A stretch of DNA of 64,000 nt from Acidobacteriota bacterium (GCA_030949985.1 JAUZRX010000063.1:6855-70854); one strand, 5' to 3'; numbered from the stretch's first letter, positions 32,351 to 34,063 are shown. Numbers and translations are program-made. The notes: generated from the sequence alone by a model not told the origin.

Positions 32351-34063
32351 CTAGTAACCCAGGGAGAGGCCGTCCTTTCGCGACTCGGTGGCTCCGCTGA
32401 GCACCCCGGTCCGGGGATCGATGCAGACCGCCTGATAGCCACCGTAGAGGCCCACGGCGGGCTGAATACGATGTCCACGGCGCACCAGTTCGCGAACGAT
32501 CTCGGGGTCGACGCCCGTCTCGAGGTGCAGCAACCCGCCTGTACTCATCAGCGTGCCCGTGGGCTGGGAAGATCCCGTGTGGACGAAGCGTGGCGCGTCA
32601 CCCGCTTCCTGCAGGTTCATGCCGAAGTCGACCAGGTTGACGACGATCTGAGCGTGGGCCTGGGGCTGGGTCGCCCCTCCCATCACGCCGAACGCGCACC
32701 AGGGAACACCCTGGCGCGTGAGAAACGCCGGAATGATGGTGTGAAACGGTCGCTTGCCCGGCACGAGGAAGTTCGGGTGCCCCTTTTCCAGGTTGAACAG
32801 GGCGCCCCGGTTCTGGATGCCGAAACCCAGCTCCGGCACTACATAGCCCGATCCGAAGCCGGTGTAGTTGCTCTGGATCAGGGAAACGAGGTTCCCCTCC
32901 GAGTCGCCGACGGCAAGGTAGGTCGTATCTCCCCGCTCCAGTCCGGGATGACCCGGATCGACGCTCTTCGCCGCCCTGTCCATGCGAATCCGGGCACGCC
33001 GGCGCCGAGCGTAGTCCTTCGTGAGCAAACCCTCGACCGGCACCTCGACCATGGCCGGATCGGCATAGAAGCGGGCCCGGTCGGCAAAAGCCAACTTCTT
33101 GGCCTCGACCATCAGGTGCCAGAAATCCGCCGAGTCACGGCCGAGAGAGGCGATGTCGAACAGCTCGAGGATGTTGAGCATCTCCAACGCCGCCAGGCCT
33201 TGCCCGTTGGGCGGCAACTCCCACAACTCCACACCCCGGTAGGAGGTGGAGATCGGCTCCACCCACTCCGAGTGGTGACCGGCGAAGTCCTCGAGAGAGA
33301 AGAACCCGCCCTGGACCTGGGAGAACGCCACGATCGCACGGGCGATGGGGCCCTTGTAGAAGGCGTCCCGCCCCCCGTCGGCCAGGATCTCGAAAGTGCG
33401 GGCCAGGGCGGGGTTGGCGAACACCTCCCCTTCCCGCGGCGCCCGGCCGCCGGGCAAGAACACTTCGGCGAAGCCCGGCTTCGAACCGAAAACCCGCGCT
33501 GAACGGGCCCAGGCTCCGGCGATCACCTGGGGCACCGGCGCTCCCTCGCGGGCCAGCCGAATCGCCGGAGCGAGAACCTCGGCCATGGGAAGCACGCCGT
33601 AGCGGTCATGCAGTTCGAACCAGCCGTCCACGGCCCCCGGAACGGTCCAGGCGTAGGGGCTGTAGAGCGGAATCGTGCCATCCTCTTCCGCCGGAATCTT
33701 CGCGGCGCTCAGCGCCCCGGGAGCCCGCCCTGAAGCGTTGAGCCCCACCAGCTCGCCCTTCTGCGCATCCCAGACCATGGCGAACAGGTCGCCGCCAGGC
33801 CCACACGCCACCGGTTCGAGAAAAGCCAGGGCCGCGTTGACAGCGATCGCGGCATCGACGGCGTTACCCCCCCGGCGCAGAATCTCCACCCCCACCTGCG
33901 CCGCCAGGGGATGGGCCGCCGAGACCATCCCGTGTCTCGCATAGGTCACCGAGCGAGTGGCCAGCAAGCGCCCTTCGGGACGGTCGGCGGCGCGCATGAC
34001 CGGCAGTACCGGCACCACGGCCAGGCAAACGATCAGCAAGGCAAGGACGGTTCTGCGCTTCAT
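32351..34063 (-). CDS. ggt: Gamma-glutamyltransferase (Ntn-hydrolase, GGT family)
   Basis: ATG at 34063 with AGGAGG RBS, 1 nt after the upstream stop. Signal peptide. …PVACGPGGD… and autocleavage/nucleophile region …GDTTYLAVGDSEGN…GGATQPQ…. Confidence 0.85.
   Translation of the reverse strand: MKRRTVLALLIVCLAVVPVLPVMRAADRPEGRLLATRSVTYARHGMVSAAHPLAAQVGVEILRRGGNAVDAAIAVNAALAFLEPVACGPGGDLFAMVWDAQKGELVGLNASGRAPGALSAAKIPAEEDGTIPLYSPYAWTVPGAVDGWFELHDRYGVLPMAEVLAPAIRLAREGAPVPQVIAGAWARSARVFGSKPGFAEVFLPGGRAPREGEVFANPALARTFEILADGGRDAFYKGPIARAIVAFSQVQGGFFSLEDFAGHHSEWVEPISTSYRGVELWELPPNGQGLAALEMLNILELFDIASLGRDSADFWHLMVEAKKLAFADRARFYADPAMVEVPVEGLLTKDYARRRRARIRMDRAAKSVDPGHPGLERGDTTYLAVGDSEGNLVSLIQSNYTGFGSGYVVPELGFGIQNRGALFNLEKGHPNFLVPGKRPFHTIIPAFLTRQGVPWCAFGVMGGATQPQAHAQIVVNLVDFGMNLQEAGDAPRFVHTGSSQPTGTLMSTGGLLHLETGVDPEIVRELVRRGHRIQPAVGLYGGYQAVCIDPRTGVLSGATESRKDGLSLGY

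Follow-up and report, generated by a model that had tools for sequence, protein, structure and literature searches.

Among the enzymes of the gamma-glutamyltransferase (GGT) family, those lacking the lid loop form a group in which a Ser at the position of Escherichia coli R114 and a His-Thr pair in place of S462/S463 are marks of the extremophile members (PMC8062742). In the Picrophilus torridus GGT, a Tyr occupies the N411 position and the enzyme carries out hydrolysis only, with mutation of this Tyr to Asn conferring transpeptidation (PMC8062742). The characterised extremophile enzymes (GtGGT, PtGGT and TaGGT) and YwrD are intracellular and have no signal peptide; the physiological role of the lid-less clade has not been elucidated, and YwrD itself is without an assigned role (PMC8062742). 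Separate clades of lid-less enzymes have been described, with the Bacillus halodurans enzyme in 'Bact4ext' and CapD in 'Bact3', along with an 'Arch' clade (PMC4568574). The acceptor-site arginines of CapD are given as 'Arg423' and Arg520 (PMC8062742), the printed 'Arg423' presumably standing for R432, which lies two residues past the GG pair in the alignment made here.

A member of this family is encoded in the window, by which is meant the whole 64,000-nucleotide stretch of acidobacterial DNA that was analysed (G+C content of 68%). It stands last in a minus-strand series of genes in the order pilB, pilT, pilC, pilS, pilR, pilin 1, pilin 2, U501, giant gene and GGT, and is followed by a convergent HDOD gene, a GT2 gene and a Glycos_transf_4 gene, after which an amine-oxidase-like flavoprotein, a GT4 and a hybrid histidine kinase are encoded on the minus strand. 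The features are as follows:

46189-47964, minus strand: pilB, annotated neighbour
45034-46188, minus strand: pilT, annotated neighbour
43816-45033, minus strand: pilC, annotated neighbour
40008-40490, minus strand: pilin 1, annotated neighbour
39452-39922, minus strand: pilin 2, annotated neighbour
37787-39292, minus strand: U501, an ORF of 501 aa overlapping the start of the giant gene by 4 nt, with homologues in the equivalent place in 8 related loci
34065-37790, minus strand: giant membrane protein of 1,241 aa with two Wzy_C (O-antigen-ligase-like) stretches (PF04932, E=4e-26, 2 stretches) and a C-terminal TPR region (TPR_9, TPR_19)
34061-34074, minus strand: ribosome-binding site, giant-gene stop, 1-nt spacer and GGT start, AGGAGGcTGAcATG, by sequence reading
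32351-34063, minus strand: GGT-family proenzyme gene of the lid-loop-less YwrD/B. halodurans type, 570 aa (PF01019, TIGR00066, 2nlz)
33989-34063, minus strand: predicted Sec signal peptide, residues 1-25 (MKRRTVLALLIVCLAVVPVLPVMRA, followed by AD), read from the translation
32924-32926, minus strand: codon of Thr380, predicted autoprocessing site and catalytic nucleophile, equivalent in alignments to E. coli T391 and CapD T352
31342-32212, plus strand: HDOD/HD-domain gene, convergent with the GGT gene, with HDOD Pfam matches on both halves
30171-31172, minus strand: GT2 glycosyltransferase (PF00535)
29158-30174, minus strand: Glycos_transf_4 gene, annotated neighbour

The GGT reading frame (32351-34063, minus strand) is translated without a break into 570 aa, and a protein 100% identical to the product is annotated in an Acidobacteriota MAG. 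The product matched PF01019 (G_glu_transpept) with an E value of 4.9e-153 and 511 bits (cutoff 27), residues 60-565 covering profile positions 2-512 of 512, and passed the equivalog TIGR00066 with 371.5 bits against a curated cutoff of 357.85. Membership of the GGT family (Pfam PF01019/TIGR00066; MEROPS T03 Ntn-hydrolases) was therefore carried by a full-length profile match. The initial annotation had proposed an exported, GGT-family enzyme, and both of its elements were borne out, export through a predicted N-terminal signal whose cleavage would fall after residue 25. Autoprocessing is predicted at T380.

The initial annotation had further placed the GGT gene directly behind the 1,241-aa gene by way of TGAcATG and an AGGAGG ribosome-binding site, which was confirmed from the sequence. 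The plus-strand positions 34060-34075 reverse-complement to AGGAGGcTGAcATG, in which AGGAGG (34074-34069), the TGA of the double-Wzy_C/TPR gene (34067-34065), one spacer base (34064) and the GGT ATG (34063-34061) follow each other on the minus strand, which both genes share and which the initial annotation had not named, the ATG lying 5 nt from AGGAGG and 1 nt past the TGA. Because of this stop/start geometry, it is very likely that the two genes are co-transcribed and translationally coupled, as had been proposed, and an ATGA overlap is seen at the equivalent junction of the sister locus L001. With a simple scan, no terminator-like site was found at the giant/GGT junction and none was predicted in the 138-bp spacer between the GGT and HDOD genes, the few weak terminator-like matches elsewhere within the giant and GGT coding sequences being about as numerous as in shuffled sequence. 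The coupling, though real, is unremarkable, because tight junctions are common in this genome: U501 and the giant gene overlap by 4 nt (37787-37790), and other ORFs abut at 45033/45034, 46188/46189, 49479/49480, 50489/50490 and 60502/60503. U501, for which no match was found in Pfam or NCBIfam, is the probable first gene of a U501-giant-GGT unit. A sigma-54 promoter for this unit was rejected, as the sole exact consensus (TGGCAC-N5-TTGC) in the window, TGGCACCGAGATTGC at 40532-40518, lies just upstream of pilin 1 and not of U501; matches with two mismatches were overall at chance level. A strong terminator-like hairpin is located 3' of pilin 1 (39993-39960).

The reading preferred here, with a probability of about 0.72, is that the gene encodes an exported gamma-glutamyl hydrolase of the lid-less type, which lies beside the giant gene by accident of position. 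The product would be an exported, self-processing Ntn-hydrolase of the YwrD/B. halodurans 'cephalosporin acylase'/extremophile type that hydrolyses the gamma-glutamyl amide bonds of small periplasmic substrates (glutathione, gamma-glutamyl peptides), leading to the salvage of amino acids and cysteine. Transpeptidase activity would probably be little or none, and the enzyme would be co-expressed with the giant gene with no joint function. Scavenging of glutathione and gamma-glutamyl peptides is suggested by the family and by a few genomic contexts of related genes.

The type of enzyme was established by comparison with solved structures and by residue mapping through phmmer and MAFFT alignments with E. 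coli Ggt and CapD. The best solved relative was B. halodurans 2NLZ (2.4e-137, aligned residues 36-566), deposited as a 'cephalosporin acylase', with B. licheniformis GGT, T. acidophilum 2I3O and E. coli GGT next at E values between about 1e-76 and 1e-78 (E. coli also given 5e-76); with the small subunit alone, both 2nlz (4.1e-48) and 2i3o (3.6e-28) came ahead of all canonical GGTs. The autoprocessing-site Thr and the Gly-Gly oxyanion hole of the GGT family are present: E. coli T391, the nucleophile, T392 and the oxyanion-hole pair G483-G484 are conserved as T380, T381 and G462-G463. The remaining E. coli positions are changed, R114 to S111, T409 to S398, N411 to Y400, Q430 to R419, D433 to L422 and S462/S463 to H441/T442, and the lid loop (P438-G449, with Y444) is absent through a 10-residue deletion in the phmmer and MAFFT alignments alike. 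The closeness of 2NLZ and 2I3O, the missing lid loop, S111, H441-T442 and Y400 together identify the lid-less YwrD/B. halodurans/extremophile type. The canonical, lid-loop-positive type does not apply, the score for the E. coli-type equivalog NF007187 being 277.9 bits where 990 are required. By its aligned residues, the pocket is non-canonical for glutathione and is instead that of the described lid-less clade; it argues against a transpeptidase role, the effect of a Tyr at the N411 position being known from one tested enzyme. The departure from the canonical glutathione pocket is also an observation that counts against glutathione scavenging.

The same pocket bears on an alternative that is considered unlikely, namely that the position is incidental but the enzyme is an amidase for another substrate, either a glutaryl- or acyl-amide, as in the class IV cephalosporin acylases, or some other N-acyl compound. 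D433 and Q430, which hold the glutamate alpha-amino group in E. coli GGT, are replaced by Leu and Arg and R114 by Ser, and the name under which the nearest solved structure was deposited points in this direction, as do the cephalosporin-related activity gained by BsGGT D445N and the unassigned role of YwrD (PMC8062742). However, TIGR00066, an equivalog, was passed, gamma-glutamyl substrates are hydrolysed by characterised lid-less relatives that share the Ser and His-Thr substitutions (PMC8062742), and sulfur- and peptide-salvage genes occur around related GGT genes, including a cysPTWA-like transporter, MBL+rhodanese fusions and M20 and PepQ peptidases. A gamma-glutamyl hydrolase is accordingly retained as the preferred, if predicted, activity.

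Homologues of the GGT number in the thousands; the best 120 are 67-85% identical to it, and those with a named source are mostly from Acidobacteriota. At 15 of 15 catalytic and pocket positions compared, the window GGT carries the majority residue of these 120 orthologues, and 11 of the positions are invariant, T380, T381, S398, Y400, T442, G462, G463 and S111 among them (120/120), while H441 is found in 119 of 120. A hydrophobic N-terminal stretch was likewise detected in 119 of 120 by a crude hydrophobicity test. The initial annotation had asked for the pocket to be compared with those of canonical GGT and CapD: neither the canonical glutathione pocket nor the CapD residues were found, but rather the pocket of the lid-less clade, which is the same in orthologues without linkage to a giant gene. 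The two linked copies have in common only three substitutions at columns at least 90% conserved elsewhere (A48S, G469A and A567S), all of them conservative, and nothing in the 120-sequence alignment points to a new function of the linked copy. Between the window and MAG JAGOJY01 the GGTs are 77% identical and the locus proteins 43-67%, and the constraint on the GGT is therefore stronger, rather than relaxed or redirected. Judged from the alignment, the protein is an ordinary member of a widespread acidobacterial branch within the lid-less YwrD/2NLZ type of GGT, a branch that is putatively exported.

The linkage was examined from the side of the giant gene and from that of the GGT. About 30 homologues of the giant protein (1,180-1,280 aa) were found, all in Acidobacteriota, and an alignment of 22 homologues was used to scan one genome per species, which yielded 31 loci whose gene order was determined by tblastn with ten window proteins in flanks of up to 10 kb. 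A conserved acidobacterial cassette is present at these loci, pilS-pilR-pilin-pilin-(U501)-giant-GT2-Glycos_transf_4-amine oxidase-GT4, with GT2 directly 3' of the giant gene in 14 of them (L007-L015, L018 and L020-L023; spacing roughly 10-120 bp). A GGT gene accompanies the giant gene at one locus of the 31, L006, no GGT match being found in flanks of up to 10 kb at any of the other 30. L006 and L001 are near-identical and were counted as a single independent relative. L001 provides the closest GGT orthologue (85% identity) and shows the order giant-GGT-HDOD (opposite strand)-GT2, as in the window. Adjacency of ggt and the Wzy_C-TPR gene across relatives had been set beforehand as the test of the functional link put forward by the initial annotation, and it was found in the window and its sister lineage only. 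The tight coupling has been kept in both members of this lineage despite giant proteins that are 70% identical, an observation that speaks against an incidental position, and some local benefit of co-expressing the GGT with the giant gene may exist.

From the side of the GGT, no giant gene, pilin or GT2 was found near any of the six next-closest orthologues (72-77% identity). The GGT gene of L002 follows a sulfate-type ABC transporter (cysPTWA-like), those of L004 and L122 come after HD and NUDIX genes, the overlap being 4 nt, that of L119 follows 2-oxoacid dehydrogenase E2/E3 genes and that of L121 follows HMGL-like and DUF4440 genes; in L120, it is divergent from an RND pump and is followed by genes for an alanine racemase and an M20 peptidase. 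MAG JAGOJY01 carries both genes, but on separate contigs: its giant gene is on contig 9 (L010) and its GGT, 77% identical to that of the window, on contig 27 (L002). A metagenome scan with the GGT provided 80 further loci (54-72% identity), and no giant, pilin, GT2 or HDOD homologue was present in the flanks of any of the 80. Linkage to a giant gene is missing in 86 of the 87 other GGT loci. The upstream and downstream ORFs of the metagenome loci, 117 in number, fell into 76 clusters. Recurrent neighbours were MBL+rhodanese fusions, M20 and PepQ peptidases, acyl-CoA dehydrogenase and a dynamin-like GTPase, together with a GH16 protein, an anion transporter, UDG, DyP peroxidase and 2-oxoacid dehydrogenase E1; the GH16-domain protein formed the largest cluster (9 members), confined to more distant loci (55-58% identity). 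A conserved functional partner of the GGT clade was rejected in view of this heterogeneity, and no surface- or envelope-polymer theme was seen among the neighbours of the 80 loci. The GGT neighbourhoods carry some peptide and sulfur-salvage flavour, which is suggestive. The HDOD and GGT genes were also considered as a mobile pair, a candidate that was rejected as HDOD was not found adjacent to GGT at L002-L005 or at any locus of the 80 from metagenomes.

With this distribution, recruitment of the GGT to the pilin/glycan pathway, be it as a CapD-like transpeptidase, a trimming enzyme or a gamma-glutamyl modifier, is highly improbable. Such a role had been put forward in the initial annotation, and several points speak for it: the coupling is real and is retained in the sister lineage, an enzyme exported as predicted would share its compartment with the Wzy_C domains and the pilin, the active sites of lid-less GGTs are open and thought to admit polymers (PMC8062742), and the pocket differs from the canonical glutathione pocket. 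However, the linkage occurs in a single lineage and is derived, 119 orthologues from unrelated contexts have an identical active site, and Tyr400, at the N411 position, speaks against transpeptidation (PMC8062742). Among bacterial relatives, CapD is moreover the most distant (26% identity), with its R432 replaced by T465 here, and no capB/capC/capA-type gene or domain of poly-gamma-glutamate synthesis was found among the annotated neighbours. The proposal is not supported, and the simple neighbourhood that had been offered as its alternative is the better reading, given the unconserved linkage. It is hardly more to be expected that, in the common ancestor of the window organism and the L001/L006 lineage, the operon of U501 and the giant gene took up an exported lid-less GGT that now serves the pilus/glycan pathway, and we give this a slim chance indeed. 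If true, the captured enzyme could, for example, remove a gamma-glutamyl-type group from the pilin or a lipid-linked glycan, or transfer one on it, or could alternatively supply periplasmic glutamate or cysteine to the pathway, and would represent a Gram-negative analogue of the CapD logic.

For the preferred reading, a gamma-glutamyl hydrolase in an accidental position, the origin of the adjacency was considered. In a neighbour-joining tree of the giant protein (1,186 trimmed columns, midpoint root, no bootstrap support), the root fell between the distant pair L030/L031 and all other loci, and the window and L006 were sister to the GGT-less L007, within the group having GT2 behind the giant gene. 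The parsimonious reading of this tree is that the GGT, with HDOD, would have been inserted once, in the ancestor shared by the window organism and L006, a reading also favoured because the nearest and the most distant relatives are both without GGT. Both HDOD and GGT separate the giant gene from GT2 here, neither being present at this place in relatives, and the adjacency is most likely recent, the giant-GT2 junction of the cassette having been split by the insertion; one lineage-specific rearrangement would have put the GGT and the opposite-strand HDOD there. Intragenomic rearrangement, and not foreign DNA, fits because the GC and GC3 of the GGT gene match those of its neighbours. A foreign origin was rejected on this ground and because the best matches are all from Acidobacteriota. 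The HDOD gene is frameshifted near 31644-31646, with the intact 289-aa L001 protein matching two frames in tblastn. That the giant gene and GGT were already adjacent in the ancestral cassette, with repeated loss in other lineages, is the least probable reading of all, since the stability of the adjacency within the window/L006 clade is the sole point in its favour, while many independent losses would be required, GGT is missing from L007, the sister lineage, as well as from the distant outgroup loci, and the GGT orthologues of other lineages occur in many differing contexts.

The outcome removes a tempting, unsupported link between a GGT and a locus resembling one for pilin glycosylation, and has little import beyond correct annotation. 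The GGT is part of a large, strongly conserved exported acidobacterial branch (about 70% identity, many MAGs) of the YwrD-type clade, and the cassette around the giant double-Wzy_C/TPR gene is the more interesting part of this region of the window.

Of the known systems, CapD of Bacillus anthracis (pXO2, poly-gamma-D-glutamate transpeptidase/depolymerase) resembles the window GGT in being a lid-less, exported Ntn hydrolase of the GGT family that is encoded downstream in a surface-polymer-type operon. The two proteins are nevertheless only 26% identical over 533 aligned positions, CapD being the weakest bacterial PDB match (large chain 3.8e-33, small chain 6e-07), and S372, Q389, N392, T409, F410 and R432 of CapD stand against Y400, R419, L422, H441, T442 and T465. 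Neither acceptor arginine is present, R432 aligning with T465 (Met in most orthologues) and R520 with K563, and the linkage of CapD to the capBCA polymer genes is constant, whereas that of the window GGT to the giant gene is found in one lineage only. A CapD-like role was rejected for this sequence distance, for the acceptor and pocket residues and for the unconserved linkage. With E. coli Ggt (b3447), the window GGT shares the fold and family, an exported proenzyme, the Thr nucleophile and the Gly-Gly oxyanion hole, and probably a similar role in salvage; six pocket residues differ (R114, N411, Q430, D433, S462 and S463), and a deletion removes the lid loop and its Y444. The lid-less YwrD/B. 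halodurans (PDB 2NLZ)/extremophile-archaeal GGTs are the closest in kind. The window GGT, known only from sequence, differs from them in its predicted signal peptide and in its origin from a (probably mesophilic or vent) Acidobacteriota MAG, but is like them in the absence of the lid loop, in the Ser, His-Thr and Tyr residues, and in the conserved TT nucleophile motif and GG oxyanion hole.

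A cassette conserved among Acidobacteriota was found to surround the giant gene, running in the order pilS, pilR, pilin, pilin, (501-aa ORF), giant double-Wzy_C/TPR protein, GT2, Glycos_transf_4, amine-oxidase-like flavoprotein and GT4, and was counted in at least 14 acidobacterial MAGs. The cassette and the features within it are as follows.

26547-43746, minus strand: conserved cassette, also present in loci L007-L015, L018 and L020-L023
40518-40532, minus strand: exact match to the sigma-54 -24/-12 consensus, TGGCACCGAGATTGC, lying some 28 nt ahead of the pilin 1 start
39960-39993, minus strand: 14-bp GC-rich hairpin with a T-tract, directly after pilin 1
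37787-39292, minus strand: 501-aa ORF, overlapping the giant-gene start by 4 nt

With its unusually large, two-domain ligase-like protein, the cassette looks like a pilin-linked glycosylation module. TGGCACCGAGATTGC was the only exact sigma-54 consensus within the window, and pilR adjoins it. The GC-rich hairpin and T-tract immediately beyond pilin 1 suggest that transcription continues into pilin 2 and the genes after it at a reduced level. The 501-aa ORF matched no family in Pfam or NCBIfam; homologues (47-76% identity) occupy the same position in eight related loci (L001, L006, L007, L009, L011, L013, L015 and L019), and other loci lack the ORF and have pilin 2 directly next to the giant gene.

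For the MAG that holds the window, the public annotation has a giant protein of 1,101 aa, covering 88% of the 1,241-aa ORF (34065-37790, minus strand), which makes the true start of the gene uncertain; orthologues align with the 1,241-aa version from about residue 37 onward. At the junction between the giant gene and the gamma-glutamyltransferase (GGT) gene in the sister MAG (L006, 7975-8035), a tandem duplication of GAGAACCATGAGAA, seen in comparison with L001, provides two candidate ATGs and may be an assembly artefact. A frame break was also seen in the gene facing GGT.

31342-32212, plus strand: HDOD/HD-domain gene, convergent with GGT, frame break near 31644-31646

Alignment with the intact 289-aa L001 orthologue showed this gene to be spread over two reading frames, residues 1-101 matching one (81% identity) and residues 102-289 the next (79%). 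The break marks either a genuine pseudogene or an indel introduced in assembling the MAG.

Away from the giant gene, GGT orthologues (73-76% identity) recur in loci of different sources (L004/L005 and L122) in the order HD-domain gene, NUDIX, GGT (L004, 8738-11710; L122, 4779-7716), with a 4-nt NUDIX/GGT overlap, an arrangement that may represent the older position of the window-type GGT in part of the clade. In L002 (MAG JAGOJY01, contig 27, 4691-11698), a porin and a sulfate/thiosulfate-type ABC transporter (SBP_bac_11, two BPD_transp_1 and a CysA-like ATPase) precede the orthologue by a 39-nt gap, and a protein combining MBL and double-rhodanese domains is encoded just upstream of GGT in four more loci; these neighbours hint at a sulfur-salvage role for GGT. 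The cassette is of greater interest than GGT.
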